A stretch of 64,000 bases of DNA from Desulfosudaceae bacterium (lineage in GTDB: Bacteria > Desulfobacterota > Desulfobacteria > Desulfobacterales > Desulfosudaceae), in contig CAXXDV010000003.1 in the NCBI GenBank assembly GCA_963674745.2, forward strand, positions 2,656,853 through 2,720,852, in the 5' to 3' direction. This document shows positions 14,438 through 64,000 of the stretch, piece by piece. The position numbers were made by a program, and so were the translations under genes. Under the pieces are notes generated by a model. It worked only from the letters and a program-made list of their open reading frames with translations. It was not told where the DNA came from and did not search any database. Each line of letters begins with the position of its first letter. Position 1 is the stretch's first letter.

Positions 14438-15631
14438 ATGGTTAAGGCAAAACTGCTTGCATTAATTGTTATCACTGCAATGGTTTGGGGTTGTGGTGAA
14501 AGTGCCGAAGAAAGACGTCTTGAAGAAGAACGCCTCATTGACGAGGTTGTGATATTGAAGTCAATTGCGGCCGCAAAAGAATATATTAATCGTTATCCCG
14601 ATGGGGAAAAAGCCGATTTTTGCAAAAACATAATCAATGAAGATGCCGCCTTTAGCAATGCTTCAAACGCAGGAACGCTTGAGCCCCTGATAAAATATCT
14701 GGATATGTACCCGTCAGGATTCCATGCCGAGGAAGCCAATGAAAGCATACAACAGATAATGTTTTCAATCGGCGATCGAGATATCGCCATAACCGAGCAG
14801 AAAAAAATCCTGGAAGACTACCTTCGGCTTGCCCCTGACGGAAAGTTTAGCGCACGGGCCGCCAGTGCCATCGACAATATCCGCTGGCTGGAGACCTGTT
14901 GCCAGGATAACGCTGTCGCTTATATCAACTACATGGGGAAAGGGGGGAAATACGACACTGACGCGAGCCTGCGGATCAAGGAAAAAGATGGACGCCCTGA
15001 GCTTCAAGAGCTGCGCCTGGGCATGACGGCTGACGAGGTAGAAAAAATTTTAGGGCCCCATTTATATGAATCAAGACTGTTTTCGGATGTCGGCGGAATA
15101 AGTCAATATGGTTCCTTTTACGCCATGAAGTATCCTGAAGCAGGTGTTCATTGCCATGTTCGCAACCATTCAGGACGAAAACTGGTTTATGAACTCCATC
15201 TGTACGAACCGTTCTCTTCATTCTACAATGGAATAAACATCGGTATGCCATTGGAAAAGATCAGGGGAATGTTCCCAGAGGCTACAACGGAAACCAGCCT
15301 TAGTGACAAGAAGGCTTATCTTTTCAAAGGTAATCAGCGTACGCTCTATGTCGGGCTTTCCCGTTCACCGGGCATCAGTACTCCGCCCCGTTACTTGAGA
15401 GTAACAACAGACAAGGGGCAACTTTACTTCCCGCAATATTCATACAACGCAAGTAGGGCGCTCCCATATATTGACGGTACACTGATGTTGAACCGCTGGA
15501 ACGCTGATCGTGTTCTAAGCGGTAAAAAGCTGTATGCCAGAATGAACTACGAGAAGGACAGCGTGATCAGTATCCATAATACGTCCGACAGTCTTCGTGG
15601 TGGTTTCATGATATTCCAATCCCCCAAATAG
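14438..15631 (+). CDS. Hypothetical lipoprotein
   Basis: Lipobox VWGC; repeated Y(I/L)..YP.G helical motifs. Confidence 0.65.
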   Translation: MVKAKLLALIVITAMVWGCGESAEERRLEEERLIDEVVILKSIAAAKEYINRYPDGEKADFCKNIINEDAAFSNASNAGTLEPLIKYLDMYPSGFHAEEANESIQQIMFSIGDRDIAITEQKKILEDYLRLAPDGKFSARAASAIDNIRWLETCCQDNAVAYINYMGKGGKYDTDASLRIKEKDGRPELQELRLGMTADEVEKILGPHLYESRLFSDVGGISQYGSFYAMKYPEAGVHCHVRNHSGRKLVYELHLYEPFSSFYNGINIGMPLEKIRGMFPEATTETSLSDKKAYLFKGNQRTLYVGLSRSPGISTPPRYLRVTTDKGQLYFPQYSYNASRALPYIDGTLMLNRWNADRVLSGKKLYARMNYEKDSVISIHNTSDSLRGGFMIFQSPK

Positions 15632-37936: not shown

Positions 37937-39262
37937 TCACAGGCGAATGTTGAAAAGTTTTATGAAACATTCGGGTTCAGGTTCGGTGCTAGTAATAAAA
38001 CAAAAGCCCCCGCTACTACTTTCATCGGTGTTTTCAATATTAACACTACAGGTGTCAGTATCTACCAGTCCACCTGAATCCGTAACCGTTAGCTCAAAGG
38101 TCAGAGCAACACCTTCGGCACTCACATCCGGTGCCGTAAAAGTCGGCTGAACAGCAGTTGCGTTTGAGAGAGTTACACTGGGGCCGACAGTTTGCCGCCA
38201 TTGGTAGCCGGCAATGCCGTCATCCGGATCAAAAGAATTGCTGCCGTCAAGCGTTACCGTTGTTTCTTCGGCTACTGCCTGGACGGGCCCGGCATTGGCC
38301 GTGGGTGGGATATTGTTCCAGGTGACATTAACCGTACAGGTGTCAGTATCTACCAGTCCACCTAAATCCGTAACCGTCAATTCAAATGTCAAGGCAGCGC
38401 CATCAGCATTCACATCCGGTGCCAAGAAACTAGGCTGAACAGCCGTTGCGTTTGAGAGGGTTACACTGGGACCGCTGGTTTGCCGCCATTGGTAGGCTGC
38501 AATACCATCATCCGGATCAAAAGAATTGCTGCCGTCAAGCGTTACCGTTGTTTCTTCGGCAACTGTCTGGACAGGCCCGGCATTCGCCGTGGGTGGGACA
38601 TTGTTCCAGGTGACATTAACTGTACAGGTGTCAGTATCTGTAAGTCCGCCTGAATCCGTAACCGTTAGCTCAAAGGTCAGAGCAACACCTTCGGCACTCA
38701 CGTCCGGTGCCGTAAAAGTCGGCTGAACAGCAGTTGCGTTTGAGAGAGTTACACTGGGGCCGCTGATTTGCCACCATTGGTAGGCAACAATGCCATCATC
38801 CGGATCAAAAGAATTGCTGCCGTCAAGGACTACAGTTTCTTCTTCAAACACTGTCTGGTCGGTTCCGGCATTGGCCGTGGGGGGCTGATTATCTATTCCC
38901 TCTTGATATACAGTGAAAATTTCACCGCTAATGTTTATGGTCCCGCTTCTGGCTAGGCCGGTGTTCACGGATACGGAATAGTAGATGGTAATAGAACAAT
39001 TGGTTAAATCAAGGCCGTTACCCCGTACCCCGGAGTGAGTTATCCAGTCGGCGTTGTACACCCAGGAAGGGTCAAGTCCAACATGCTCAATACTGCCGTC
39101 GCCGCCGCTGGCCGGAAAGTATGCATCGGTCGGGCCGACTATCCCTGCCGCTGATTGATTCGCTTGGATTAACAGTATGAGCATAAGTAAACAGATTGAA
39201 GATTTGATTACCAGCACTCGTTTTTTTTGCATTATCAATTTCCCCGTGGATTTTTCAGACAC
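37937..39262 (-). CDS. Secreted protein with three PKD-like repeats and a C-terminal GGxCFI motif
   Basis: Signal peptide; three 96-aa PPTANAG...LDGSNSFDPDDGI..YQW repeats with a 288-bp period; SSSGGFCFI tail. Confidence 0.8.
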   Translation of the reverse strand: MSEKSTGKLIMQKKRVLVIKSSICLLMLILLIQANQSAAGIVGPTDAYFPASGGDGSIEHVGLDPSWVYNADWITHSGVRGNGLDLTNCSITIYYSVSVNTGLARSGTINISGEIFTVYQEGIDNQPPTANAGTDQTVFEEETVVLDGSNSFDPDDGIVAYQWWQISGPSVTLSNATAVQPTFTAPDVSAEGVALTFELTVTDSGGLTDTDTCTVNVTWNNVPPTANAGPVQTVAEETTVTLDGSNSFDPDDGIAAYQWRQTSGPSVTLSNATAVQPSFLAPDVNADGAALTFELTVTDLGGLVDTDTCTVNVTWNNIPPTANAGPVQAVAEETTVTLDGSNSFDPDDGIAGYQWRQTVGPSVTLSNATAVQPTFTAPDVSAEGVALTFELTVTDSGGLVDTDTCSVNIENTDESSSGGFCFITSTEPEPECFIKLFNIRL

Positions 39263-46835: not shown

Positions 46836-47089
46836 AACAACTCCTTCGCATTTCCGCCATCGGCAGGGACAACAATAAAAAAATTAAGAAAATTTTACGC
46901 TCGGTGGTAATTCTTATCCGAATTTTTCACATTTTGCCATTATTTTTATCAATTACAAACGATTTGCACTAAACGCCATATCGGCCCCATTTATTGCTGA
47001 TATCACTTCTTTTTTTATTTTACTAAAAAAACTTGCAATACGGTAAATTGAAAGCCATCGTTTCAATATGCAAGGTTATATAAACAGAT

Positions 47090-47682: not shown

Positions 47683-47930
47683 TAGCGGCCTTTACCTTCA
47701 TGTCATTGCCCGACTTGATCGGGCAATCCAGCCAATTTTACCTGAATCATCCGGTCGTTTTCCTTTTAAGCCCTCGACGTGACTGTTTTTATCGTTGTAT
47801 GAATATTTGTATATTACAAGGCTGGTTGTCTTCACCCCAATCAAAATCGATAAATAATCTTTGACATATTTGTTATAATTTATAATACTTATAGTTGTCG
47901 GCACTAATGATTAGACGTTGAGGTAACAGC

Positions 47931-49116: not shown

Positions 49117-50193
49117 ATGGAAGGCAAGTTATCGCTTCAGGCAACACAGTTTTTAGCGGCTATCGGCCGATTATTCAAATCCCGAATCGCTCTTGAAAAT
49201 GCTTACCTGCTGCAGGAGAATAAAATCCTGCGCAGCAAAATTGGCAAGCGCGTTCCATTGACAGACGCGGAACGCCGGATTCTGGTCAGCGTTGGTATGC
49301 CCATAAAGGATCGGCTGGCCCAGATCATCTCTATTGTAAAACCCGAGACTTTGCTGGCCTTGCACCGGCGCATGAAAAAAGCCAAGTGGACGTATGATAA
49401 TACCCGCAAAAAACCTGGACGGCCAAAGACGCCGGAACAAACGGAAAGCCTTGTCCTGCAAATCGCCCATGAAAATAATATTGGCTATACCCGTATCGCC
49501 GGTGAGCTGATGAAACTGGGCCACTGCCTCTCACCCACTACTGTGGCCAACATCTTAAAAAAGCACGGCCTGCCGCCAGCACCTCAACGCAAAGGCCTGC
49601 CTTGGGCAACCTTCATTAAGTCTCATTTGAACGTCATCTGGGCCACCGACTCTTTTACTGAAGAAGTCTGGACGGCAAGAGGCTTGGTTACATTCTACGT
49701 GCTGTTTTTCATTCACCTTGGCACCTGTAGCGTGCATATCGCCGGCTGCACGCCTCACCCGAATGCTGCCTGGATGAAACAGCAGGCCAGAAACCTGTCC
49801 ATGAAACTTGCCGACGACCAGGCGCCCTGCAGGTATATTATTCATGATCGGGATTCAAGTTTTATACCGTTTGATCAAATCATCAAAACCGACGGCATCA
49901 AAATCGTCAAGACACCACCCAAAACGCCTATGTGTAATGCCTATGCCGAACGATTTGTCCGGGAAGCCAGAGAGACTCTGAACAATATCATCCCTTTGGG
50001 GGAAAGGCATTTTCGGCATGTTCTTAAATGTATTGAAACGCATCACAATCAACAACGACCTCACCAGGGTATAAACAATCGCATACCAGACGGGTTTGAT
50101 TTTCCCGACAAACCCGCCGATCCCGAAGACGTTCGCTGCCAACCCATGCTCGGCGGACTGCTTAATCATTACTACGTAAAAAAGGCTGCCTGA
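49117..50193 (+). mobile_element. DDE (rve) integrase-core transposase
   Basis: PGRP, GYTRIAGEL, WATD, IHDRD, N.YAERFV, N.QRPHQG, LGGLL.HY. Confidence 0.85.
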
Positions 50194-50211: not shown

Positions 50212-50420
50212 CGTCATTGCCCGACTTGCCTTGGATGTCATTGCCTGACGCCCACCTCTGTCATTGCCCGGCTTGACCGAGCAATCCAGCAAAACCGACT
50301 GCCATATATATTGAATCCGGCCAATTTTACTCTGGATCATCCGGTCGAGCCGATGACGTGCAGGGGCGTCATTACCCGGCACTTACCACTGTCATTGCCC
50401 GGCATGATCGGGCAATCCAG
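50212..50420. repeat. Cluster of GTCATTGCCCG-N-CGGGCAATCCAG palindromic repeats
   Basis: Several full and partial copies; same family at 47701-47730 and 59010-59740. Confidence 0.8.
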
Positions 50421-50531
50421 TCATCCGACAGGCCAAACAAACCACAAAAACGGATGAGATATTCCTGTCTTTCTCCTTTTAAACCCTCAGCCTGCCTTTT
50501 TTTATCGCCGTATGAATATTTGTATAGTACA

Positions 50532-50700
50532 CGGCAGAATGGGTGCGCTTTTTGCGGGCGCGGCGCAAAAAGGCAAAAACCCTGGAATATACAAATTGAC
50601 CTCCCACCTTGTACATTCCAGGGTTTTTGAGTTTTTTCTGGAATAAGATTGATCCGCTTCCGCTTATCTGTTCCAGAAAAAACCGTCACCCACTAACACA
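50532..50700. other. Conserved structured non-coding element, copy 1
   Basis: Homologous to 59818-59987; three hairpins in a GGGTG/CACCC closing stem, with compensatory changes between copies. Confidence 0.75.
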
Positions 50701-50761
50701 CATGAAACGAGAAAGAACAAATGTGAAAATATAAAGGGCGTTCCCTACTCCGTCTCGTCCC

Positions 50762-51613: not shown

Positions 51614-52432
51614 TTATTGTCCGGTAAGGTAATTGTTCGGTGTTGATTGATATGGTGATGGTTTAATTAGTTTAAGTAGAAAGTTGTGGGTTCTAATTTC
51701 ACCATAATTGAGTTCTGAAACGTATTTTTCACTGGATGAGCTACGATCGACTCCATATAATTCCGCATCAGGATTATATATAGGCGGCATAAATCGTCCA
51801 TTCATTTTTACTATTTCAAGCATGTCATCAGAGTTTACAAACACTTCGAACTTATACTTTTCTGGTACTATAAAAGCGTAATTTCCTTTTTCATTAGTTA
51901 AGCTATAGTAGCAACAATCTCCATCAAGAATATCTAAAAGGACCGTTGCATTTTGCACTGGTGTTAAACGCACCGTATTAAAAATGGCGTTAACTCGACC
52001 TTTTATCACACCATATACTTTGACTTTAAAAATATCCCCGGGTTGAATTAAATCTGGAAGATTATGTCGTCCCGGCGCTGGCTCTTCAAGAGATAACCAT
52101 TGAGGCCAATCGCCTAGTGACAAATTTGACAATTTCTCTTCTTTAATTCTATCAATTAAACCCGATATTGTATCATTACACTCCGCTTCCCATTCTTCCC
52201 AAGTTAATTCATCCGCAGCAATATCACTTCCGTTTTGGACTCGTTTTAGGAGGACTTTAACTATACGATACGAAATCTCCTTCCATAGTCCTATAGGGTC
52301 ATAATAACTAGAAGGAGCATTTACAATGAAACAATATAGATTCAAGCCGCCTGTTTCCTCAATTGGATCCCGATTAATCCATCTTCCCATCTCAGCAGAA
52401 TAGTATCTGTAACCAGATATTACAACGCGCAT
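51614..52432 (-). CDS. Rhs core C-terminus plus variable tip 1 (LysM-like and carboxypeptidase-regulatory-like domains)
   Basis: GYRYYSAEMGRWINRDPIEETGGLNLYCF..N.P..YYDPIGL followed by a unique AT-rich tip. Confidence 0.88.
   Translation of the reverse strand: MRVVISGYRYYSAEMGRWINRDPIEETGGLNLYCFIVNAPSSYYDPIGLWKEISYRIVKVLLKRVQNGSDIAADELTWEEWEAECNDTISGLIDRIKEEKLSNLSLGDWPQWLSLEEPAPGRHNLPDLIQPGDIFKVKVYGVIKGRVNAIFNTVRLTPVQNATVLLDILDGDCCYYSLTNEKGNYAFIVPEKYKFEVFVNSDDMLEIVKMNGRFMPPIYNPDAELYGVDRSSSSEKYVSELNYGEIRTHNFLLKLIKPSPYQSTPNNYLTGQ
52401..52432. other. Candidate recombination (att) site, copy 1
   Basis: TGTAA-CCAGATA-TTACA (52408-52424); DNA identity with copy 2 ends at 52401. Confidence 0.7.
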
Positions 52433-52599
52433 CCCCCCTAAGAAGCTTGTTTTTTGACCCCCCTGGGCTTGCCTGTCAAAGAACGAACTGTTTTAAAAAT
52501 TAGAACATTTTCCCCAATAATGCAAGAACTGACGGCAGTTAAAAAAGGAAAGGTTTCTTTCTTAACTGCCGTTTGCGGATTATGGTTCCGGCCCGGATA

Positions 52600-53511
52600 T
52601 TATAATCCGGGGTGATACTTCTTGTGGATTTCTTTTAAGTCGTTGATGGTAACGCGGGTGTATATCTGTGTGGATTCTAAAGATTCATGGCCAAGCATTT
52701 CTTGAAGATGGCGGATGGGAGCGCCGTTTTTTAGCATATGGGTGGCGCAGGTATGGCGGAACGTGTGGACGGTGATGTTTTGCCGGAGACCGGCCAGGTG
52801 GGCGCACTGCTTGATATTCTTCCAAATGGTATGGGTTTTGATCTGGCCGCCCTTGTCGTTTAAAACAAGCCAGCCCATATCCTTGCCTTTCAGCAGTCCC
52901 GGCCGGATGCCAAGAATATAGGTGTTGATCAGTTCACAGACGTTTGTGCTTAACGGAACGACACGTTCCTTGTTGCCTTTGCCCAGCACCTTGACAAAGC
53001 CTGTCTCAAGTTCAAGGTCATACAGTTTGATATGGCTGAGTTCCGCTCTTCTGATGGCAGTATCATAAAGGATCTCTAACATGATCCGGTCCCGGTAGCC
53101 GCTGTTTGTCCGCATGTCCGGAGCGTTCATGATTTGCTTTATCTCCTGTCGGCTCATGATGGCCCTGGGCAGTCGCCGGGGCTCTTTGGGCAGCTTGATG
53201 CCTGATCCGGGATCGGATATAAGATAATCTTTTTCTTTTAAGTACCGGGTAAACAGCATGACAGTGCTCAAACTTTTTGACTGGGTCCGGGCTGACAGGG
53301 GCGTTCCCTTGGCTGTTACGGTAAAGGCAAGTTCCTGCTGGTAGTCTTCCAGCACCTCCCGGCTGAGGTCTTCAATATTTGTAAGGCCGTTATCTTCAAG
53401 GTAACGGGCAAAACGGCGCAATATAAACCGTGCTCCCCTGACCGTAAAGTATGACCGGCCCTGGGCCTGCATGTGGGTCAGGTATGCCGGGATAATAGTG
53501 TTTATGTTCAC
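52600..53511 (-). CDS. Xer-type tyrosine recombinase B, copy 1
   Basis: TAIRRAE, GKGNKER, HTFRH, LGH, TQIYT; GTG start with GGAGG RBS overlapping the upstream TGA. Confidence 0.92.
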   Translation of the reverse strand: MNINTIIPAYLTHMQAQGRSYFTVRGARFILRRFARYLEDNGLTNIEDLSREVLEDYQQELAFTVTAKGTPLSARTQSKSLSTVMLFTRYLKEKDYLISDPGSGIKLPKEPRRLPRAIMSRQEIKQIMNAPDMRTNSGYRDRIMLEILYDTAIRRAELSHIKLYDLELETGFVKVLGKGNKERVVPLSTNVCELINTYILGIRPGLLKGKDMGWLVLNDKGGQIKTHTIWKNIKQCAHLAGLRQNITVHTFRHTCATHMLKNGAPIRHLQEMLGHESLESTQIYTRVTINDLKEIHKKYHPGL

Positions 53512-54419
53512 GGTTCCTCCTGTGTGTTGGGGTGGGTTCTGGTGTGGGTGTCCTTGATCTCGACGGGCATGACTTTTGTATATTGCTGGGTGGTCTTTAA
53601 ATACTTGTGGCCCAGCAGTTTCTGGATATAGCGGATGTCCGCGCCCTGCTGAAGCATGTGGGTCGCGCATGATCGCCGGAACGCATGAAGCCCCACCGGC
53701 TCTTTTATCCCGGCTTTTCTGCGATAAGTATCAAGGCTTACGCGCAGGCTTCCCCAGGTCAGGGGACGGCCTTCAACCGTCAAAAACAGTTTTCTTTCCC
53801 TGGGGTTTCTTCGCGCGTGCTTTGGCCGGATGTGTTCAAGGTATTCTTTTAGATAGTGGACGGCGGATTTGCCCAGGGGAACAACACGTTGTCTTTTGCC
53901 TTTGCCTTTGCGGATATAAAGCACGTTGTCCCTTGTGTCCACGTCATATATATGCAGGTTTAAAAGTTCGTTTGACCGGATGCCGGTGGAGTACAGCACT
54001 TCCATGACGGCCCGATCCCGGATCTGGGCGTTTAAAGAAAGGTTTGGCTGATCAAAAAGGAGTTTGATTTCTTGTCTTGTTAACACCCGGCCGATGGTTC
54101 TTTTTTTGCGTCCGGTCTCCTTGATCCCTTCGGCCGGGTTGATTAAAAGCCGGTGGGTCTCTGTCAGATGTTCAAACAGCCGCTTGACAGCCCTGATCCT
54201 TATGGCCCTGGTCTCGGCGGCTTTGGGCAGCCCCATGACCTCCGCCTGGTACTCCTGCATGATCCGGTCATTAACCTGCCTGATGTCCGTTATTTCTATT
54301 TTGGTAAGAAAGGAAACAAAACATTTTAAGCCGTATTGATAAGCCTCTATCGTTTTAGGGGCATAGCCCCTGACTTTAAGATATTGCTTGAACTCCCCTA
54401 CAACTACGACGACCTCCAT
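53508..54419 (-). CDS. Xer-type tyrosine recombinase A, copy 1
   Basis: STGIRSNE, GKGKRQR, HAFRR, LLGH, TQQYT. Confidence 0.92.
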   Translation of the reverse strand: MEVVVVVGEFKQYLKVRGYAPKTIEAYQYGLKCFVSFLTKIEITDIRQVNDRIMQEYQAEVMGLPKAAETRAIRIRAVKRLFEHLTETHRLLINPAEGIKETGRKKRTIGRVLTRQEIKLLFDQPNLSLNAQIRDRAVMEVLYSTGIRSNELLNLHIYDVDTRDNVLYIRKGKGKRQRVVPLGKSAVHYLKEYLEHIRPKHARRNPRERKLFLTVEGRPLTWGSLRVSLDTYRRKAGIKEPVGLHAFRRSCATHMLQQGADIRYIQKLLGHKYLKTTQQYTKVMPVEIKDTHTRTHPNTQEEP

Positions 54420-54459
54420 TTATACCCCCTCTCCCCCCCCGCTGTTTCTTGCTCCACAA

Positions 54460-54579
54460 CCTCGTAGTTGTTCGGCTTATGGTTTAACATCAATGCCTTA
54501 AGTGCCATTTTGCCGCCCCTCGTAGTTCCCTCGTAGTGGCTTTATTTACCCTCGTAGTTGCCCGGATTACCCTCGTAGT
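54460..54579. repeat. Five CCTCGTAGT direct repeats (iteron-like), copy 1
   Basis: Starts at 54460, 54518, 54529, 54550, 54571; an inverted partial copy AACTACGA lies near 54402. Confidence 0.85.
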
Positions 54580-54582
54580 CCG

Positions 54583-57240
54583 CTATTTTTTCTCTTTCTT
54601 CATCAGCTTTTTGATTTCTTCTGTCGGGGTCAGATTCAAATAAAACCGGGTATTGTCCTCGCCCTGGCCCTTGTAGTTCAAGGCGTAAGCGTATTCCTTG
54701 CCGCGAGCCCCGAACCGGACCAGCAGGTATTCCAGGTCTTCCAACTGGCTGATGTGGGCGCGGATCTGCCAGTCCGTCCAGTTGATTGATTCTCTGATCT
54801 GCCGCCGGGTAAAAAAGACTTCATCAACCGGAAGCTTCTGCTTTTTGGATATGTCCCTGACCATTTTGTAAATCCCGTCAAGTAAAAGCCGGGAAGGCCG
54901 GGCCAGCTCGTCCAGGCTCTGGCCCAGGACGTCATTGGCCAGGGTGTTGGCCTTGTCGATATCGTTTAAGGTAACTTCGATGTACTCCACGGCTTTTCCT
55001 TCAACCTGCACGGTCTTTGCCTGCCTCTGGTACTGGTGCAAAAAGGCAATGGCTTCGATCAGGCCCAGGTACTTGTCATGGTCCCTTCTGCTGATCAGCG
55101 ATTTTGTGGGATAGGACAGATACGGCGTAAAAGGATTGACTACGGCCACGGGCTTTAACATCTGCTGGGCGATCTGGTGGATACGTTCGATATGGGTTGA
55201 TTTAGTCCGGTTGACCAGGCCCTCCAACGTTCTGGCCTGCTTCTGCTTGTCATGGATGGCGGCCGTCATCTGCTCGGACTCGTCGATTGATAAAAAGATA
55301 AACCGGGAAGCTGTCTCGGCGTCGATGTCGGCCGCCGTGGTGGTCAGCATGACCGAGACCGGGCCTTCAACAGTATACGTTTCGGTCTTCATCTTGCCGG
55401 TGCCGGGGTCCTTTCCCGTGGCCGCCACCCTGATCCGGCCTTCTGATTGGATATTGCGGATAGAATAAGCAGCCCCGCCCACGCCCGCCTCCTCCTCGAT
55501 GGCCAGGATTTTATTTTTTAACGATCCTTCTTCCTTGTAAAAAAGGGCCTGGTCGGTCACGCGGGTGTATTTTTCTTGATGGCTTTCCGGAACAAAGCGG
55601 AGGATAGCGTTCTGCAATGTCGATTTGCCTGCCCCGCTTCTGGACTGGATCAACGTGGACAAGGGCTTGGCCAAAAGCCGGGACACGGCCGTCAGATAAC
55701 ACACGATCTTGTTTGTCTCCTCGCCCACAATGCCCATGATCAGTAAGGCGTCCAAAATAGCCTTGAACATGTCCGGGGATTTTAAAAAGGTCTCTGCGGC
55801 CTTCTTTTCTGTCTGGCTGGGCTCGATGGCCTTGGCCTCTTTTTCTTTGGGCTGGTAGTTCTCTACCAGGGTCAACAGCTTGCCGATGTCTTCCTTGACC
55901 AGCTCCTCGGCCGCTCCGAACAGATCGGCGCAGAGTTTCGCGAACCAGAGCCGGGACCGGGAAGAATAAAGATCAATGGTGGTCAGTTCAAACGGCAGGC
56001 TGCCCTCAACGTCCGGGGATGCCTTGATCACGGCTTTTAACTGGGTTTCTCCTCGGCAGATACCCTTGACATGGTATTGCCGTTCTCCGTATCCCACGAT
56101 AAAGCCGCTTTCCGTGTGTTTGAATAACGTTTTTTTGCGGGGATAGACATGGTCGGAGTGCTCCAATGATTTTGGGTTGGCCTGTTTTAACAAAGCCTCG
56201 AACTGCTCCGGCGTATGCCGGTTAAAGTAGATGTTCACGTCTTTTACCGGCAGCTCGACCGTATAGGGCGTGATCTGTTTATCTTTTAGCTGCAAGCCTA
56301 CGGCCTGGGCAGCTTTTTTGCCGGGGTCATCGGCATCAAACACAAGATAGGCTTCCTTTATTCTGCCTTTGCAGTATGCCAGATGATCGTCAATAAGGCC
56401 GTTGGTGCCATACAACGGCATGACGTTTTTAAAGCCCTGGTCGTAAAGGGTCAGGGCGTCAATGACAGACTCTGTTAAAAGAATAGCCTGGGAGCGTTTG
56501 ACGGCCTGACGGTTGACCAGGCCGGACCGGCTGCCCGGCAAGTACAAATGGGTCAGGTCGCAGGATTCGTCTATGTTGCGGCCGTAAAGATTGACCACGG
56601 CCCCGCTCCCGTCATAGAGCGGGAACACGACACAGTTTAAAAAGCGTTCGTTTCCTTTGGCGTTTAAGATGCCGATGGTTTTTAAATCACTGGTGATCTG
56701 ATCGTCATCCGGCAGGATGGACAATAAGGTGCCGTTGACATAGCCTGCCCCGAAGTCCTTTAAAGACTGGTTGCGGGTAATGCCTCTTTTGTTCTTGAGG
56801 TAATCCAGGCCCTGGGTGGTTTCTTCCAGGGTGTGCTGGTAATAGGCGATCACGCGGGCCAGGAGTTTCTTTTGTTTGACGGTCAGAGGTTTTGTATTGT
56901 CGGGATTTTCTTTGGGTTGTGGTTGTGGTGGGGGTTTTCTGGTTGGGGTTTTGCGCGGGGTCGTCATTTCATTGGCGGATAGTATCCGCACGGCCTCGGT
57001 AAAGTCCACCCGGTCAAACAGTTCGATAAACCGGATCACGTCCCCGGCTGCGCCGCAGCCAAAGCACTGCCAGAGGTTTGTTTTTGGATTGATGGAAAGG
57101 GAAGGATTTTTATCGTCATGGAAGGGACACAGGCCGAAGTAACCCCGGCCGTTCTTTTTCAACTTGATGCCCCTGGCCTCGGCCAGGGCCACCATGTCAA
57201 CAGTGGCTTTGATATGGTCTATCTTTTCTTGTTCTATCAT
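54583..57240 (-). CDS. DnaG-like primase-helicase (CHC2 zinc finger, Toprim, P-loop NTPase)
   Basis: CPFHDDKNPS...CFGC; ESVIDAL and FDADD Toprim motifs; SRSGAGKS Walker A. Confidence 0.9.
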   Translation of the reverse strand: MIEQEKIDHIKATVDMVALAEARGIKLKKNGRGYFGLCPFHDDKNPSLSINPKTNLWQCFGCGAAGDVIRFIELFDRVDFTEAVRILSANEMTTPRKTPTRKPPPQPQPKENPDNTKPLTVKQKKLLARVIAYYQHTLEETTQGLDYLKNKRGITRNQSLKDFGAGYVNGTLLSILPDDDQITSDLKTIGILNAKGNERFLNCVVFPLYDGSGAVVNLYGRNIDESCDLTHLYLPGSRSGLVNRQAVKRSQAILLTESVIDALTLYDQGFKNVMPLYGTNGLIDDHLAYCKGRIKEAYLVFDADDPGKKAAQAVGLQLKDKQITPYTVELPVKDVNIYFNRHTPEQFEALLKQANPKSLEHSDHVYPRKKTLFKHTESGFIVGYGERQYHVKGICRGETQLKAVIKASPDVEGSLPFELTTIDLYSSRSRLWFAKLCADLFGAAEELVKEDIGKLLTLVENYQPKEKEAKAIEPSQTEKKAAETFLKSPDMFKAILDALLIMGIVGEETNKIVCYLTAVSRLLAKPLSTLIQSRSGAGKSTLQNAILRFVPESHQEKYTRVTDQALFYKEEGSLKNKILAIEEEAGVGGAAYSIRNIQSEGRIRVAATGKDPGTGKMKTETYTVEGPVSVMLTTTAADIDAETASRFIFLSIDESEQMTAAIHDKQKQARTLEGLVNRTKSTHIERIHQIAQQMLKPVAVVNPFTPYLSYPTKSLISRRDHDKYLGLIEAIAFLHQYQRQAKTVQVEGKAVEYIEVTLNDIDKANTLANDVLGQSLDELARPSRLLLDGIYKMVRDISKKQKLPVDEVFFTRRQIRESINWTDWQIRAHISQLEDLEYLLVRFGARGKEYAYALNYKGQGEDNTRFYLNLTPTEEIKKLMKKEKK

Positions 57241-57496
57241 ATCTCGTCTCCCGATTTCTGAGTTGGTTAAAAAGGATGTCGCGTAAATGATTCAAGGACT
57301 CTCTGAACTGGACCGGATTTACCAAAGCATGGCCGTCCCGGTAGGCCCGGTCATGCTCGACCAGGTCCGGACCGGTGAACATAAAAGACGCGATCTGTTT
57401 GCCGTTGCCGTTAAAGCGGATGTCGTCCAGCCGCCCGCCCATGCACAGGTAAAACGCCCCGCGAAAGATGTCGGTTGTTTCTAACGTGGATGTCAT
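57197..57496 (-). CDS. Small hypothetical protein upstream of the primase
   Basis: AGGAGG RBS; overlaps the primase start. Confidence 0.65.
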   Translation of the reverse strand: MTSTLETTDIFRGAFYLCMGGRLDDIRFNGNGKQIASFMFTGPDLVEHDRAYRDGHALVNPVQFRESLNHLRDILFNQLRNRETRYDRTRKDRPYQSHC

Positions 57497-57758
57497 ACGG
57501 ATCACCTCCTTTCATTTGATTTTTTGCGGGAGATGAGATAGAAAAAGAAAAGGTTTTCAAAGGGTTTTGGCCCTTTGAGTTCCGATCTCGGCCATCAACC
57601 TCGTCCGCCAAGACAAAGTGGTTGATGGCCTTTTCTTCGCAAACCCCCGTCAATTAACTGTCAAGCAAAAAAAATGATGGATTTTATTTTTAAATCGTGA
57701 TTAACTTTATAGTGATTCACTTATAATGTCAAGCACAAAAATAAGTGTTTCCTAAAGT

Positions 57759-58154
57759 ATGAGATATAATATGTTCATGAAAAACAAAGATAAAAAATTC
57801 CCCAAGCCGATGATAATCGGCGATGAGACGTTTGGTCAGAGGCTTGCGAGGATAAGAAAAGAAAAAGGCTATACTCAGGTTGAGTTGTCAAAAAAAATGG
57901 ATATGATCCAGGTCCTGATTTCTGACTATGAACATGACAAACTCCGACCACATCACGAGATAATCGCCCGCTTTGCAAAAGCCCTTAGTGTATCTGCCGA
58001 CGCGCTTCTTGGGCTTGAGAAAGACGCGCAGAGCCAAAATACACCAAGCCTTAAAATTCAACGAAGAATGAATAAAATCGAACAGCTTCCGCCATCTCAA
58101 CAAAGGGCTCTCTTGCAAACCATTGATGCCTTTGTTAAAGGTGTCAGCAAATAA
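57759..58154 (+). CDS. Xre-family HTH regulator
   Basis: FGQRLARIRKEKGYTQVELS...ISDYE...ALSVSADALLG; divergent from the primase operon. Confidence 0.88.
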   Translation: MRYNMFMKNKDKKFPKPMIIGDETFGQRLARIRKEKGYTQVELSKKMDMIQVLISDYEHDKLRPHHEIIARFAKALSVSADALLGLEKDAQSQNTPSLKIQRRMNKIEQLPPSQQRALLQTIDAFVKGVSK

Positions 58155-58170
58155 GAAACCGAGGTGATTT

Positions 58171-58401
58171 ATGGAAAAATTTATCAATATCCACGTTGAG
58201 AAGTTGCCGGAAGGTGTTTATTTGGCAACATCCGATGATGTATCCGGACTGGTGGCCCAGGGACGGACGGCAACCGAAGCGTTAGAGATCGCGCGTGATG
58301 TGGCCCGTAAACTCCTTGAGGCAAAAGCCGAGAGAAGCGGCCAGATTAATCTTTCTGTAATTGGCGATTCTTTTGATTATCCCCTGATTGTGAACGCATA
58401 A
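58171..58401 (+). CDS. hicB: Short HicB-like antitoxin
   Basis: EGVYLATS.DVSGLVAQGRT..EALEIARD. Confidence 0.8.
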   Translation: MEKFINIHVEKLPEGVYLATSDDVSGLVAQGRTATEALEIARDVARKLLEAKAERSGQINLSVIGDSFDYPLIVNA

Positions 58402-58402
58402 C

Positions 58403-58626
58403 ATGGGACGATTAGCGGATTCCGATATAAAGAGATCACAAAACGATTAAAGGCACACGGGTTTTTATTCGATCGTCAGGCCGCCGGAAGCCATGAGATC
58501 TGGTATAACCCGCAAACTGATCGATATACCACCGTTCCCAATCATCCGGGAGAGATGCCCGAAGGTACGTTGAGGGCGATCTTAAAACAAGCCAATATTA
58601 CCCCTGACGAATTTCTGAAAAAATAA
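58403..58626 (+). pseudogene. hicA: HicA toxin, frameshifted near codon 6
   Basis: One extra G in GCGGATTC restores MGRLAGFRYKEITKRLKAHGF.FDRQAAGSHEIWY...VPNHPGEMPEGTLRAILKQA. Confidence 0.85.
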
Positions 58627-58755
58627 AAACAAAGGTAGGTCTCCGTGCTCGGGCTCCAGCCACGCTTATTATATTTATTGGCGTGGCTTCCGCTTCCTGC
58701 GCGCGGAGCCCGGTCCTGATTTTATATCTATTCCCACCCTCCACCCTAAAAGGAA

Positions 58756-58949
58756 GCCGCCGCGCGTTTATTTGGTTGTTCCCTGCCTGTCATGCCGTCT
58801 GCATCTTCTTACATAATCAAACCTTAATTATCGGTCGTTGCATCCATTTTAAAAAACCATAAGGCAGCAACAACCGATAATTCTGATTATGTAATCAGAC
58901 GCAAGCGTCACGCCAGGCAGGGGCGGACAGCCCCGGCAACAGCGGCGGC
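58756..58949. other. Long imperfect hairpin containing two inverted dif-like sites
   Basis: ACAACCGATAA-TTCTGA-TTATGTAATCA (58870-58897) and, on the minus strand, ACGACCGATAA-N11-TTATGTAAGAA (58838-58806). Confidence 0.65.
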
Positions 58950-59009
58950 GTCTGTTCTTTTCATTCTCCCGGCCGCCCTCCCCTGGATAAGGTAACGGTC
59001 AATTTTATT

Positions 59010-59740
59010 CTGGATTGCCCGGTCAAGCCGGGCAATGACGCGGAAGGAAGCCAAACCGAACCCGTGGCGACATAAAAACCGGGGTTTTTCGGCAAGGGTA
59101 AGGTATGGGTCCGGCCGGGATCGTCGTTTCTGCGGGCAATGAGGGGACCGGATTCTTTTGTCATCCCCTCGGCTTGAGCTTCCTTATGTCATCCTCCGGC
59201 TTGTCCGGGGGATCCAGGTAAAACGGAAGGCCGGACAGATTCCGGTAATGGGCGAAGGATTTTCTTTTTTAATTGCCGCTGCGAGCGGAAGGAGCGGAGC
59301 CCGCCGGTAGTTTGGCGGGCAAAGCCTGAGCACGCAGCAGAAAACAACAACCCGTAAAAGAGTTAAAGCCGAGGCAGAGGGGTGAGCCCGCCCGGCGGAG
59401 ACAGGGCTGGCGCGGGCCTTGCCCAACCGGGCAATTAAAAAGAAAAAAGGATGAAGACGGAAGACGGACGATTTTTAAAGAAAGAACCTACAAAAGCAAG
59501 GGCCGTGACAGCCCTGGCGAGGGGGAGAGGCGCGGGGGGCGGGCTTAAGATTGATCGCGTGGGGCGCACCTTTTTCTGCCGGCGCCGGATATTTTGCAAG
59601 GCAGGACTCGAAGCCACGGCAGAGCCTGGCGCGCGGCCTTGCATTTCCGCCGGTCATCCTCCGGCCTTTCTCCCTCGTCATTACCCGACTTGATCGGGTA
59701 ATCCATTATTCTGGATCCCCTGGTCAAGCCAGAGGATGAC
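59010..59740. repeat. GTCAT...ATCCAG palindromic repeats in both orientations
   Basis: CTGGATTGCCCGGTCAAGCCGGGCAATGAC (~59010), GTCATCCTCCGGCTTGTCCGGGGGATCCAG (~59188), GTCATTACCCGACTTGATCGGGTAATCCA (~59677), CTGGATCCCCTGGTCAAGCCAGAGGATGAC (~59711). Confidence 0.8.
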
Positions 59741-59817
59741 CAAAGGCATGCAAGGCGCGTGACAGGCGGGGCATACATCAAAACCCACTTACCCGCACGG
59801 CTACAGGCGAGGACGGC

Positions 59818-59987
59818 CGGCAGAATGGGTGCGCTTCGGGGGGCGTGGCCCCGAAGGCAAAAACCCTGGAATATACAAATTGACCTCCCACCTTGTACAT
59901 TCCAGGGTTTTTGAGTTTTTTTGACCATAAGATTGATCCCATTCCCTATGGCCGTTGGGCAAAAAAACCGTCACCCACTCACACACA
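59818..59987. other. Conserved structured non-coding element, copy 2
   Basis: Homologous to 50532-50700, at the same position just downstream of the immunity gene. Confidence 0.75.
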
Positions 59988-60028
59988 AAGACAATCATAT
60001 AAGCATAGTCAGCCCCTATTTGCCCCCT

Positions 60029-60751
60029 TTATACTTTAGGAATATTTTCTTCTAAATAGGGCAAAATGACATCACATATTTTGAGAAATTTATATAAATT
60101 CTCTTCTAAGTTTTCCGCGGAATCAAATTTAAATCCTTGTGTGTATGCATTCGGGTATAGCAAAGAAAAATCAATTTGCAATAATGGTTTTTCAAAACCA
60201 AAATTAAAATGTAGTTTAGAAATAATACTTCCACGCTCGATTAAAATATAAATTCTATTGCCATTTGCTATTTTCTTAGAAAATTTAGTTTCGCCTTTGA
60301 ATGAATACCCTTCATTGAATTTATATTCAGGTTTATTAGCCGCAAAAACTTTTTTTAATATACTATTAACATTAATTTTAATTTGTACAACACTTTTAGA
60401 GCGTTCCTTTTTTCGAAAATAATCTTCATCCCCTTTATTTTCTTTTAACCACTTAATTACTTCTTCGCGATTGTTACTGATTTCTTGAGTAATCTCTTTA
60501 GGGAAAGGTTCGTAATCCCTTAATAACCTATATCGTAAATCTTTATTAAAATATTTAATTTCAGAAATTAAAAATTTATTCTTTAATTTTTCATCGATTT
60601 CATCATAATACTTCATAAAATATTTAATATAGCTTCTATTATCTATAAGTTCTACTGGATATTCCTCAAAAGGAAATTCTTTATATAGAATTTTTCTTTG
60701 CATTTCAGAAAACAACTTTACCATTTTTTCCTCGAGGCTTTTATTCTCCAT
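60029..60751 (-). CDS. Putative cytoplasmic immunity protein of Rhs tip 2
   Basis: Very AT-rich; downstream of a nuclease-like tip; no signal peptide. Confidence 0.6.
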   Translation of the reverse strand: MENKSLEEKMVKLFSEMQRKILYKEFPFEEYPVELIDNRSYIKYFMKYYDEIDEKLKNKFLISEIKYFNKDLRYRLLRDYEPFPKEITQEISNNREEVIKWLKENKGDEDYFRKKERSKSVVQIKINVNSILKKVFAANKPEYKFNEGYSFKGETKFSKKIANGNRIYILIERGSIISKLHFNFGFEKPLLQIDFSLLYPNAYTQGFKFDSAENLEENLYKFLKICDVILPYLEENIPKV

Positions 60752-60891: not shown

Positions 60892-61680
60892 TTAGGGGAC
60901 AGGGATTCTAATACCACCAGGCAATGGAAAATATTTTTCTAATAATTTCCTAGTTTCTTCCCCTGCTTCAATAAATTCTTTTTCCAGTGCTTTGACTGAT
61001 TCGCTTTGATTTTGACTATTTGATTCTTCTAATCTCAATCCATAAAAAATAAAGCCTTTTCTACCATAGTTTTCACCAGGATAAACCCTAATCGAAAATT
61101 CATTACCAAACATATCTTTCACGTTATAATCATCAGGTAAATCTTCGTGCGGTGTGTTAAAAAAGTCTCTTGAGTCACCCATGCTATAACACTTATCGGT
61201 GATCTGTTCTAAATATCTTTCAATCTGCGAATCATCATTATCCCAAAAACTTGGTGCTTTATGTGTAATTGGCTTTATTTCCCAAAGATAGTTTTTGTCC
61301 ATATCTCTAGAAATTATATCAGGTCTTCGCATTGATATAAAACCATATGTTTTTAATGGTCTATCGTATTGCAAATTATTATATTTAGTATTAACATCAT
61401 CAATATAATCCATGATTGCAGTATGGCTAACTGTCCCAAGAAAGCCGGTATAAAATTTGATAAAACGACCAACAGGGTTTAAATAGGAAGCGTTTGACTC
61501 AAGTTCAACTTCAAAAGGATAAGGATCAGCCATCAGGCCAAGAATATCAAAATAATTTATAGAATTATTTAAGGCAAAGGAATAAAGATTTCTACCCCCT
61601 CTTTCCCCCAACGGATCCCTACTCAACCACCTCCCCAATTCCGCCGAGTAGTATCTGTAACCAGATATTACAACGCGCAT
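60892..61680 (-). CDS. Rhs core C-terminus plus variable tip 2 (PD-(D/E)xK nuclease-like toxin)
   Basis: GYRYYSAELGRWLSRDPLGERGGRNLYSF..N.....DILGL; tip carries H...RPDII...WEIKP...QIERY. Confidence 0.85.
   Translation of the reverse strand: MRVVISGYRYYSAELGRWLSRDPLGERGGRNLYSFALNNSINYFDILGLMADPYPFEVELESNASYLNPVGRFIKFYTGFLGTVSHTAIMDYIDDVNTKYNNLQYDRPLKTYGFISMRRPDIISRDMDKNYLWEIKPITHKAPSFWDNDDSQIERYLEQITDKCYSMGDSRDFFNTPHEDLPDDYNVKDMFGNEFSIRVYPGENYGRKGFIFYGLRLEESNSQNQSESVKALEKEFIEAGEETRKLLEKYFPLPGGIRIPVP
61649..61680. other. Candidate recombination (att) site, copy 2
   Basis: Identical to 52401-52432; core TGTAA-CCAGATA-TTACA at 61656-61672. Confidence 0.7.
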
Positions 61681-61873
61681 CCCCCCTAAGAAGCTTGTTT
61701 TTTGACCCCCCTGGGTTTGCCTGTCAAAGAACGGATTGTTTTAAAAATTAGAACAATTTACCCAATAATGCAAGGATTGACGAAGAACCGGCAAAGGATT
61801 GACGGCAGTTAAAAAAGGAAAGGTTTCTTTCTTAACTGCCGTTCACGGCTTATGGTTCCGCACGTGGATTCCG

Positions 61874-62785
61874 TTATGAACCGGGATGATACTTCTTGTG
61901 GATTTCTTTTAAGTCGTTGATGGTAACGCGGGTGTATATCTGTGTGGATTCTAAAGATTCATGGCCAAGCATTTCTTGAAGATGGCGGATGGGAGCGCCG
62001 TTTTTTAGCATATGGGTGGCGCAGGTATGGCGGAACGTGTGGACGGTGATGTTTTGCCGGAGACCGGCCAGGTGGGCGCACTGCTTGATATTCTTCCAAA
62101 TGGTATGGGTTTTGATCTGGCCGCCCTTGTCGTTTAAAACAAGCCAGCCCATATCCTTGCCTTTCAGCAGTCCCGGCCGGATGCCAAGAATATAGGTGTT
62201 GATCAGTTCACAGACGTTTGTGCTTAACGGAACGACACGTTCCTTGTTGCCTTTGCCCAGCACCTTGACAAAGCCTGTCTCAAGTTCAAGGTCATACAGT
62301 TTGATATGGCTGAGTTCCGCTCTTCTGATGGCAGTATCATAAAGGATCTCTAACATGATCCGGTCCCGGTAGCCGCTGTTTGTCCGCATGTCCGGAGCGT
62401 TCATGATTTGCTTTATCTCCTGTCGGCTCATGATGGCCCTGGGCAGTCGCCGGGGCTCTTTGGGCAGCTTGATGCCTGATCCGGGATCGGATATAAGATA
62501 ATCTTTTTCTTTTAAGTACCGGGTAAACAGCATGACAGTGCTCAAACTTTTTGACTGGGTCCGGGCTGACAGGGGCGTTCCCTTGGCTGTTACGGTAAAG
62601 GCAAGTTCCTGCTGGTAGTCTTCCAGCACCTCCCGGCTGAGGTCTTCAATATTTGTAAGGCCGTTATCTTCAAGGTAACGGGCAAAACGGCGCAATATAA
62701 ACCGTGCTCCCCTGACCGTAAAGTATGACCGGCCCTGGGCCTGCATGTGGGTCAGGTATGCCGGGATAATAGTGTTTATGTTCAC
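61874..62785 (-). CDS. Xer-type tyrosine recombinase B, copy 2
   Basis: Protein identical to copy 1 except the last residue (S vs L). Confidence 0.92.
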   Translation of the reverse strand: MNINTIIPAYLTHMQAQGRSYFTVRGARFILRRFARYLEDNGLTNIEDLSREVLEDYQQELAFTVTAKGTPLSARTQSKSLSTVMLFTRYLKEKDYLISDPGSGIKLPKEPRRLPRAIMSRQEIKQIMNAPDMRTNSGYRDRIMLEILYDTAIRRAELSHIKLYDLELETGFVKVLGKGNKERVVPLSTNVCELINTYILGIRPGLLKGKDMGWLVLNDKGGQIKTHTIWKNIKQCAHLAGLRQNITVHTFRHTCATHMLKNGAPIRHLQEMLGHESLESTQIYTRVTINDLKEIHKKYHPGS

Positions 62786-63693
62786 GGTTCCTCCTGTGTG
62801 TTGGGGTGGGTTCTGGTGTGGGTGTCCTTGATCTCGACGGGCATGACTTTTGTATATTGCTGGGTGGTCTTTAAATACTTGTGGCCCAGCAGTTTCTGGA
62901 TATAGCGGATGTCCGCGCCCTGCTGAAGCATGTGGGTCGCGCATGATCGCCGGAACGCATGAAGCCCCACCGGCTCTTTTATCCCGGCTTTTCTGCGATA
63001 AGTATCAAGGCTTACGCGCAGGCTTCCCCAGGTCAGGGGACGGCCTTCAACCGTCAAAAACAGTTTTCTTTCCCTGGGGTTTCTTCGCGCGTGCTTTGGC
63101 CGGATGTGTTCAAGGTATTCTTTTAGATAGTGGACGGCGGATTTGCCCAGGGGAACAACACGTTGTCTTTTGCCTTTGCCTTTGCGGATATAAAGCACGT
63201 TGTCCCTTGTGTCCACGTCATATATATGCAGGTTTAAAAGTTCGTTTGACCGGATGCCGGTGGAGTACAGCACTTCCATGACGGCCCGATCCCGGATCTG
63301 GGCGTTTAAAGAAAGGTTTGGCTGATCAAAAAGGAGTTTGATTTCTTGTCTTGTTAACACCCGGCCGATGGTTCTTTTTTTGCGTCCGGTCTCCTTGATC
63401 CCTTCGGCCGGGTTGATTAAAAGCCGGTGGGTCTCTGTCAGATGTTCAAACAGCCGCTTGACAGCCCTGATCCTTATGGCCCTGGTCTCGGCGGCTTTGG
63501 GCAGCCCCATGACCTCCGCCTGGTACTCCTGCATGATCCGGTCATTAACCTGCCTGATGTCCGTTATTTCTATTTTGGTAAGAAAGGAAACAAAACATTT
63601 TAAGCCGTATTGATAAGCCTCTATCGTTTTAGGGGCATAGCCCCTGACTTTAAGATATTGCTTGAACTCCCCTACAACTACGACGACCTCCAT
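62782..63693 (-). CDS. Xer-type tyrosine recombinase A, copy 2
   Basis: Protein identical to 53508-54419. Confidence 0.92.
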   Translation of the reverse strand: MEVVVVVGEFKQYLKVRGYAPKTIEAYQYGLKCFVSFLTKIEITDIRQVNDRIMQEYQAEVMGLPKAAETRAIRIRAVKRLFEHLTETHRLLINPAEGIKETGRKKRTIGRVLTRQEIKLLFDQPNLSLNAQIRDRAVMEVLYSTGIRSNELLNLHIYDVDTRDNVLYIRKGKGKRQRVVPLGKSAVHYLKEYLEHIRPKHARRNPRERKLFLTVEGRPLTWGSLRVSLDTYRRKAGIKEPVGLHAFRRSCATHMLQQGADIRYIQKLLGHKYLKTTQQYTKVMPVEIKDTHTRTHPNTQEEP

Positions 63694-63733
63694 TTATACC
63701 CCCTCTCCCCCCCCGCTGTTTCTTGCTCCACAA

Positions 63734-63853
63734 CCTCGTAGTTGTTCGGCTTATGGTTTAACATCAATGCCTTAAGTGCCATTTTGCCGCCCCTCGTAGT
63801 TCCCTCGTAGTGGCTTTATTTACCCTCGTAGTTGCCCGGATTACCCTCGTAGT
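63734..63853. repeat. Five CCTCGTAGT direct repeats, copy 2
   Basis: Same as 54460-54579. Confidence 0.85.
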
Positions 63854-63856
63854 CCG

Positions 63857-64000
63857 CTATTTTTTCTCTTTCTTCATCAGCTTTTTGATTTCTTCTGTCG
63901 GGGTCAGATTCAAATAAAACCGGGTATTGTCCTCGCCCTGGCCCTTGTAGTTCAAGGCGTAAGCGTATTCCTTGCCGCGAGCCCCGAACCGGACCAGCAG
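63857..64000 (-). CDS. 3' end of primase-helicase, copy 2 (partial)
   Basis: Matches 54583-54726. Confidence 0.9.
   Translation of the reverse strand: MLVRFGARGKEYAYALNYKGQGEDNTRFYLNLTPTEEIKKLMKKEKK

Follow-up and report, generated by a model that had tools for sequence, protein, structure and literature searches.

The hairpin and its conservation in sister elements

A stretch of 64,000 nucleotides (nt) from a Desulfosudaceae bacterium (GenBank assembly GCA_963674745.2, contig CAXXDV010000003.1, positions 2,656,853 to 2,720,852, forward strand), hereafter referred to as the window, was analyzed around an imperfect palindrome of approximately 200 nt (58753-58952), which a first-pass annotation had described as a folded pair of sites resembling dif, the chromosomal XerCD site, and had likened to the attP of phage CTXphi. 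The window is chromosomal (genes for topoisomerase subunits, RecC and metabolic functions), and its right end holds two tandem units of a mobile element, 9274 bp apart, with positions 61581-64000 repeating 52333-54726 at 97.4% identity. The order of genes on the minus strand of a unit is a 102-amino acid (aa) protein, a primase, two recombinases, an open reading frame (ORF) for the Rhs core end plus a variable tip, and a further small ORF, which is probably an immunity gene. The palindrome runs from an outermost G+C stem to its partner, and is composed of the following parts, the arms of each site being designated C (XerC side) and D (XerD side):

58781-58805: 5' half of the outer stem ("T stem"), partner of 58898-58922, with two mismatch positions conserved family-wide
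58838-58806, minus strand: long-spacer dif-like site "beta" (C arm 58838-58828, 11-nt central region 58827-58817, D arm 58816-58806)
58839-58869: apical stem and A+T-rich loop, whose sequence varies among sister copies with pairing retained
58870-58897, plus strand: short-spacer dif-like site "alpha" (C arm 58870-58880, 6-nt central region 58881-58886, D arm 58887-58897)
58898-58922: 3' half of the outer stem, pairing with 58781-58805

All four arm pairs listed in the first-pass annotation are present, among them repeat arms of 39 nt (58781-58819/58884-58922, 79% complementary), 16 nt (58826-58841/58867-58882, 94%) and 11 nt (58753-58763/58942-58952, 91%). When positions 58740-58965 were folded as single-stranded DNA (ssDNA), the plus strand reached -49.1 kcal/mol (mean of 200 shuffles -26.6, standard deviation 3.2, z -7.1) and the minus strand -59.3 kcal/mol (shuffle mean -29.6, z -9.6), and for neither strand was any of the 200 shuffles as good. 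The hairpin is thus real. In the fold, pairing involves the half-sites and the ends of both spacers, leaving a 5-nt bulge in the long spacer. The annotated layout holds as well: only the short-spacer site has the 11-6-11 arrangement of dif, and the other has near-identical half-sites around an 11-nt spacer.

The arm-core pattern, with a gap of 5-12 nt, was found five times in the window (0.31 expected; none of 100 shuffles reached five), and two of these matches are the sites of the hairpin itself. Arm-6-arm matches were also found where the second recombinase gene begins (53491-53507 and 62765-62781), but they were not conserved there in the sister loci compared, and were therefore treated as chance. 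Only one copy of the hairpin occurs in the window, and no second or half hairpin, such as would be expected at the end of a CTXphi-like array, was found there by nhmmer up to E = 100 with separate arm models included.

Resemblance of the arms to dif was evaluated against the sites predicted for Desulfatibacillum alkenivorans, Desulfococcus oleovorans and Desulfobacterium autotrophicum, as entered in the supplement of Kono et al. 2011 (PMC3025954), with all identities read by eye and without a shuffle control. Compared with the D. alkenivorans entry of that supplement, the short-spacer site matched at 8/11 positions of the C arm and 9/11 of the D arm (17/22 in total), and the long-spacer site at 9/11 and 8/11, respectively; arms of sister copies were up to 10/11 identical to the Desulfobacterales dif sites predicted in the same entries. 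The dif of E. coli, with which the arms had initially been compared, matched the short-spacer site at only 5/11 and 7/11 positions (12/22). The central regions of the hairpin sites are unlike that of dif.

One genome per species was scanned with an alignment of 15 primases, resulting in 78 sister loci (numbered with the prefix L), nearly all from Desulfobacterota. A total of 2143 relatives of the primase were found in the protein collection, those with names belonging to Desulfobacterales and many being located on contigs of 5-12 kb. Homologues of the hairpin were detected in 21 of the 78 loci, from Desulfobacterota in every case: iterated nhmmer with the hairpin retrieved 24 sites in 20 loci (E 1.2e-36 to 5.4e-5), and the copy of L009 was added by motif scan. 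Several copies may be present per genome (L056 and L058 lie on one chromosome). The arm-spacer-arm pattern (5-12 nt gap) had 44 matches in the 870,182 bases of the window plus the loci, 41 of them within hairpins; the remaining three were a further inverted pair in L059 and a single match in the window (14906-14927). The half-sites were the best conserved portion of the hairpin among sister copies; their lack of conservation, which the first-pass annotation had named as evidence against its proposal, was not observed.

Covariation, proposed in the same annotation as a check, was also found. RNAalifold predicted 34 pairs for 14 aligned copies, and in 19 of them both sides had changed with pairing kept. 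Standard pairs occupied 91.1% of the alignment cells in these copies (74.7% in shuffles), and the covariation score was 0.410 (0.121 in shuffles), values reached by none of 500 shuffles in either case; sliding the partners by 1-3 columns, as a control, lowered pairing to 31-42%. The compensatory changes were mostly located in the apical and outer stems, beyond the conserved half-sites, with 7 of the 13 pairs of the apical stem (helix 5) changed on both sides.

The asymmetry between the two sites was likewise conserved. Every copy had one site with a spacer of 6 or 7 nt and another with 7, 9, 10, 11 or 12 nt, in two subtypes, 6 vs. 9-12 nt, or 7 vs. 7 nt and mostly unpaired; in the latter, the spacers share only two bases beside the XerC-side arm, and the remainder forms a bubble. 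Within an element, both spacers share their first 1-3 and last 3-5 bases, which differ between elements (71 of 85 end positions shared in 17 copies, read by eye without shuffle control), so that the long spacer amounts to the short one with an additional 4-5 nt, which bulge out on folding. In addition, the two sites differ at two distal positions of the XerD-side arm, giving a 2-nt mismatch, and at two positions of the outer stem, and these mismatches are retained while adjacent pairs co-vary. As a consequence of the conserved asymmetry of spacers and mismatches, folding is strand-biased: the strand with the long-spacer site in the C-to-D direction folded better in all 19 of 19 copies, by 2-14 kcal/mol.

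Two connectivities of the hairpin were observed. In the type found in the window, the duplex is capped by the loop at its C-arm end, and the outer T stem leads into the flanks. In L009, L018 (two copies) and L022 it is instead the T-stem end of this duplex that is capped, and the C arms lead into the flanks. Retained in the permuted type are the T stem, the D arm and its 2-nt mismatch, the 6-vs-10 central region and the C arm. Thus, the two types have opposite site arrangements on double-stranded DNA (dsDNA), yet they are the identical object as folded strands, which fits a function of the folded duplex rather than of a fixed arrangement on dsDNA, and which we regard as the strongest argument for selection of the folded form. 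Orientation also varies in place: L014 (4136-4296) and L015 (4195-4341), from one genome bin, have the same genes and left flank with the inner ~150 nt in opposite orientations, and the hairpin of L017 is reversed relative to hicA in comparison with the window, as given by the nhmmer strand.

Element borders, flanking modules and genes

Hairpins were found at two places of the element, and none was detected elsewhere within the 10-kb flanks. The first place lies 100-450 nt downstream of the second recombinase gene (L010, L012, L013, L014, L015, L023, L056, L058 and L059), and the second upstream of the side carrying the toxin-antitoxin pair, the regulator and the primase (the window, L011, L013, L019, L051, L054 and others). 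There are one or two hairpin sites per unit of 8-9 kb, inverted where two are present; in L012 and L013 inverted hairpins occupy both places and bracket a cargo of 1.5-2.6 kb. Two further conserved features accompany the hairpin in the window:

58636-58741, plus strand: "M" module, a conserved structured element of ~100 nt between hicA and the hairpin (36 hits in loci plus window by iterated nhmmer)
59337-59274, minus strand: second, weaker copy of the M module (nhmmer)
58732-58746, plus strand: C-rich box of the left flank, with a direct copy at 58967-58981
58967-58981, plus strand: C-rich box of the right flank, direct copy of the former

The M module, for which there was no Rfam match, adjoins the hairpin or the alternative block described below on the side of the core genes. 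The same C-rich boxes flank both kinds of block in sister loci; they are runs of G on the better-folding strand, which might form quadruplexes.

The alternative block (S block; ~230-300 nt) was present at the same two places in 22 of 79 sequences (L078:15058-15359 and L051:1641-1931 and 10582-10872, as well as L006, L007, L073, L077 and others). It is made up of a closing stem, a C-arm/C-arm palindrome around a spacer of 6-8 nt (in most cases palindromic as well), a hairpin showing the T-stem pattern, and a D-arm/D-arm palindrome, and it folds as a four-way structure (z -7.8 and -8.5). The T stem, with the same mismatches, both caps the hairpins of the permuted form (type II) and forms the middle hairpin of the S block. 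L051 and L058 are 80% identical from the recombinase gene through the M module and beyond the block, with an S block in one and a hairpin in the other in between, and five loci (L009, L018, L051, L057 and L058) have both kinds of block. The window has no S block, nor any block past the second recombinase gene. Derivation of the hairpin from an S block by one recombination between the C/C and D/D palindromes was considered and rejected, as no simple scheme gives the observed order.

The genes of the unit that includes the hairpin are:

51614-52432, minus strand: Rhs core end plus variable C-terminal tip, just downstream of the recombinases; twin at 60892-61680 (NCBIfam Rhs_assc_core, 1.4e-12 and 1.1e-13)
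52600-53511, minus strand: second Xer-like tyrosine recombinase, 303 aa from GTG at 53511; nearest solved relative XerD 1a0p (E 2.6e-43)
53508-54419, minus strand: first Xer-like tyrosine recombinase, 303 aa; Pfam Phage_integrase 1.7e-41; nearest solved relative E. coli XerD 1a0p (E 1.7e-34)
54583-57240, minus strand: primase fused to a P-loop NTPase, 885 aa; Pfam Zn_ribbon_DnaG, DNAG_N and Toprim, weak DUF5906; PHROGs DNA primase
57197-57505, minus strand: conserved 102-aa protein upstream of the primase; no family match
57759-58154, plus strand: XRE-type regulator, divergent from the primase operon
58171-58625, plus strand: HicB-like (58171-58401) and HicA (58405-58625) pair; the hairpin starts 128 nt past hicA

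Both recombinases scored 225-280 bits on the NCBIfam XerC/XerD models (the first alone, 227-235 bits), under the cut-offs of 330-371. On the integron-integrase model they scored 126.8 and 108 bits, below the cut-off of 265, and hence they are not integron integrases. In L017, hicBA genes 79-87% identical to those of the window also adjoin the hairpin. The hicA frame of the window (58403-58625) is disrupted near its 5' end relative to an intact 74-aa copy in L017 (2346-2570), and the Pfam HicA match of the window sits in a frame that has no ordinary start codon.

Elements of this family adjoin rhs genes and carry Rhs toxin tips. Homology between the two units of the window ends at 52333/61581, just beyond the conserved coding part of the Rhs core end, and at 50532/59818; these borders define no attachment (att) site, and no tRNA genes that could serve as att sites were found in the window. 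The hairpin lies inside the element, apart from the Rhs core-end junctions, in agreement with its annotation as a site separate from the Rhs att. Searches of public plasmid records returned two weak primase matches only, and those of phage records none. Terminal overlaps of 21-151 nt in four whole-contig loci were considered as possible circular forms; since they fit tandem copies equally well, and the contig of L017 begins inside an Rhs reading frame, no attP form could be read from them.

Some variation in gene content was observed. One tandem copy in L013 (12169-14553) lacks the two recombinase genes, its primase gene being followed instead by an IS200-like Y1 transposase gene and a Rhs C-terminal part. 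In L051 (2130-3679), the interval from S block to hairpin contains two successive small Rhs-tip ORFs, each followed by a small membrane-like ORF, an arrangement that looks like a toxin-tip/immunity cassette array inside the element.

Interpretation of the hairpin and related systems

Half-sites and spacing point to Xer-type recombinases. Folded DNA is indicated by covariation, by conservation of the bulge and of the mismatches, by strand bias and by permuted connectivity. On this basis we lean towards interpreting the hairpin as a structured Xer-type recombination site that would act in folded form, as a single strand or an extruded cruciform. The two inverted dif-like sites would anneal in one strand into a single duplex of C arm, central region and D arm, with a central region of 6 nt facing 10-11 nt or, in the second subtype, of 7 vs. 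7 nt and mostly unpaired. Given their linkage to the hairpin, the likely enzymes would be the XerC/D-like pair whose genes lie ~4 kb from it within the unit; since the arms resemble, and may mimic, the dif of the host clade, the host XerCD is a possible alternative. Either the hairpin or the S block (~300 bp), which appear to be interchangeable, would mark the borders of a core module composed of the toxin-antitoxin pair, the regulator, the 102-aa protein, the primase and the two recombinases. Candidate reactions include integration and excision, resolution of units in tandem arrays, or exchange of the Rhs toxin-tip cargo. The structural part of this interpretation appears well supported by the comparative evidence; folding in vivo, a ssDNA stage, binding by Xer recombinases and the reaction that the hairpin would support are at the level of inference. 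Integration at chromosomal dif, on the other hand, which the first-pass annotation had also suggested, is left without support, as no canonical dif was found in the window or in the 78 sister loci with flanks of as much as 10 kb; a candidate at window position 47076 was rejected for lacking a C arm.

Several observations weigh against a folded recombination site. No rolling-circle (HUH) Rep, relaxase, transfer or phage gene was found among the ORFs of the 9.3-kb unit, and neither a partner site nor a recombined half-site was found; the single truncated copy (L068) has its break within the apical stem rather than the central region. Taken by itself, the short-spacer site has the ordinary 11-6-11 duplex layout and could function as dsDNA. 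Several sister copies share a genome bin or a chromosome, so that the set is not independent, and copy-correction within the palindrome could partly produce the covariation between arms. The dif sites used for comparison are those predicted for relatives; that of the host itself does not lie in the window. Furthermore, 40 of the 79 sequences show neither hairpin nor S block, many of these being short contigs or distant relatives. Finally, the S block replaces the hairpin between the same flanks with separate C/C and D/D hairpins and no C/D duplex; if the two blocks are equivalent, a folded C/D duplex may not be essential.

Other explanations were weighed against the same data. The 11-6-11 site at 58870-58897 could be an ordinary dsDNA att or resolution site, with the long-spacer copy as a non-reactive binding site or decoy and the hairpin as a by-product. 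Its canonical layout, the need of the tandem 9274-bp units for a resolution or att site, and the absence of any ssDNA-producing gene from the unit are all consistent with that possibility; yet we consider it unlikely, as it does not account for compensatory changes in stems beyond both sites (helices 1, 2 and 5), for the bias towards the same strand in 19 of 19 copies, for the conserved arm-to-arm mismatches or for the circularly permuted connectivity.

A second possibility is a replication origin or single-strand initiation site for the primase/NTPase, in which the palindrome would be an unwinding or priming structure and the C-rich boxes iteron-like binding sites. Primases can recognise hairpins at single-strand initiation sites, the primase/P-loop NTPase fusion is the largest conserved gene of the unit, and both the direct C-rich boxes on the two flanks and the A+T-rich loop would fit such a role. 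However, an origin would leave unexplained why both arms copy the dif of the host clade with dif spacing, and why the hairpin can be replaced by a block of C/C and D/D palindromes, so that little probability was assigned to it as the explanation of the hairpin. The two roles are compatible, in that unwinding at an origin could supply the single strand for recombination.

Alternatively, the hairpin could be a parasitic, palindromic miniature insert in the end block of the element, exploiting Xer, moved by the host XerCD and with no role for its carrier. This was judged improbable to a higher degree: the direct C-rich repeats on both flanks, the two orientations in which the inner ~150 nt lie within shared flanks (L014 and L015), the allelism with a different block and the mimicry of the host clade's dif would all be expected of such an insert, but the hairpin is confined to two border positions of a single element family within 870 kb, and its divergence has paralleled that of elements with 45-70% identity between their primases. 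Since the hairpin lies where the toxin-tip genes and the hicBA operon converge, and T-rich runs follow the outermost G+C stem on both strands, it might also be taken for a transcription insulator or terminator, or for a structured RNA; such a role is highly improbable, considering that the terminator scan was silent at the hairpin, that no model reached its Rfam gathering score in window 57000-60200 or L078 14700-15500 (best, a plant microRNA model with 27.8 vs. 83 bits), that G-U type intermediates are few among the pairs, and that the dif-like arms would be unexplained.

Integron attC and CTXphi attP are central to the spread of resistance and virulence genes, and they are, to our knowledge, the only two systems in which tyrosine recombination on folded ssDNA is well established. 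The closest known system to the hairpin, and one with the same layout, is attP(+) of CTXphi, a filamentous phage of Vibrio that exploits the XerCD of its host. According to PMC4246890, attP1 and attP2 are inverted, 90 bp apart, and have central regions of 12 bp and 5-7 bp, and attP(+) is folded in the phage single strand and cut by the host XerC. The inverted layout with unequal spacers of the window therefore parallels that of attP1/attP2, as had been annotated: in both cases one molecule contains two inverted dif-like sites with unequal central regions (here 11 and 6 nt), whose annealing gives one XerC-arm/XerD-arm duplex with an unpaired centre. The separation between sites is 31 nt in the hairpin vs. 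90 bp in CTXphi, and whereas the CTXphi arms copy the dif of the host, here they resemble dif sites predicted for relatives of the host. The element does not belong to the CTXphi class, because it encodes two Xer-like recombinases as well as a primase, while CTXphi has no recombinase of its own; because it lies beside rhs genes with no dif nearby, while CTXphi integrates at dif; and because no ssDNA-producing gene was found in the unit, unlike the rolling-circle ssDNA life cycle of the phage.

With attC, which has three unpaired features (PMC5027507), the hairpin shares an imperfect palindromic structure, variable sequence with kept structure, conserved unpaired features and a preferred strand. 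Unlike the hairpin, attC sites are shorter, are arrayed one after each cassette in one orientation and are read by IntI, and only the hairpin has dif-like arms. A looser parallel is given by the pdif modules of Acinetobacter plasmids, in which inverted Xer-type sites bracket exchangeable gene modules (PMC7399989), as the inverted hairpins of L012 and L013 bracket their cargo; however, pdif are single 28-bp duplex sites for the host XerCD, with no hairpin pairs and no element-encoded recombinases. The rAID-1 arrays of Bacteroidales associate a XerD-family recombinase with arrays of interbacterial toxin-immunity genes and intergenic repeats "reminiscent of integrons" (bioRxiv 10.1101/471110), but differ from the Desulfobacterota element in having one recombinase, no primase, no reported dif-like hairpin, and a cargo of immunity genes instead of Rhs tips. 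Chromosomal dif, the target of XerCD, is a single 28-bp site at the replication terminus with the 11-6-11 layout, and the hairpin arms are close to the predicted Desulfobacterales dif, although the central region differs and the sites of the hairpin are duplicated in inverted orientation, in a mobile element with many copies per genome.

Neither the element family nor a dif-like hairpin accompanied by its own Xer pair was found described in the full-text literature searched, which holds a minority of the subscription journals, and the words "primase" and "pairs" are absent from a survey of tyrosine recombinases (PMC8138268). A more speculative extension of the folded-site interpretation, for which we would claim only tentative standing, is that of a self-contained ssDNA recombination system, third beside integrons and CTXphi-type phages, in which at least three interchangeable folded dif mimics (the hairpin in its C-arm-closed and T-stem-closed forms, and the S block with its three hairpins) would be read by the element's own XerC/D-like pair, while the primase/NTPase would expose the strand or rebuild the duplex, and Rhs tips would be moved and swapped along with their immunity genes. 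Such a system would represent a third family of folded-ssDNA tyrosine recombination, with its own Xer-like pair, in abundant environmental sulfate reducers, and tied to Rhs-tip exchange; it would make the folding of a dif mimic a recurrent solution and would provide a mechanism for the shuffling of polymorphic toxin tips. The permuted hairpins would also offer a natural series of substrates for asking what the recombinases recognise.

Other features of the window

Additional repeats were found around the units. A conserved stretch of ~170 nt follows the presumed immunity genes of both units (50532-50702 and 59818-59987, 84% identical) and includes a palindrome of ~45 nt. At the left border of the first unit there is a repeat of ~60 nt (50468-50533), found again 2.7 kb further left (47762-47822); a PIN-domain toxin-antitoxin pair, a transposase gene (49117-50193, rve_3) and palindromic REP-like repeats lie between the two copies. 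The REP-like repeats are located at 47702-47731, 50260-50289, 50391-50420 and 59010-59039. Elsewhere in the window, three tandem repeats of 288 nt (38039-38902), 85-88% identical, were detected within the gene for a PKD-domain protein (37937-39262).

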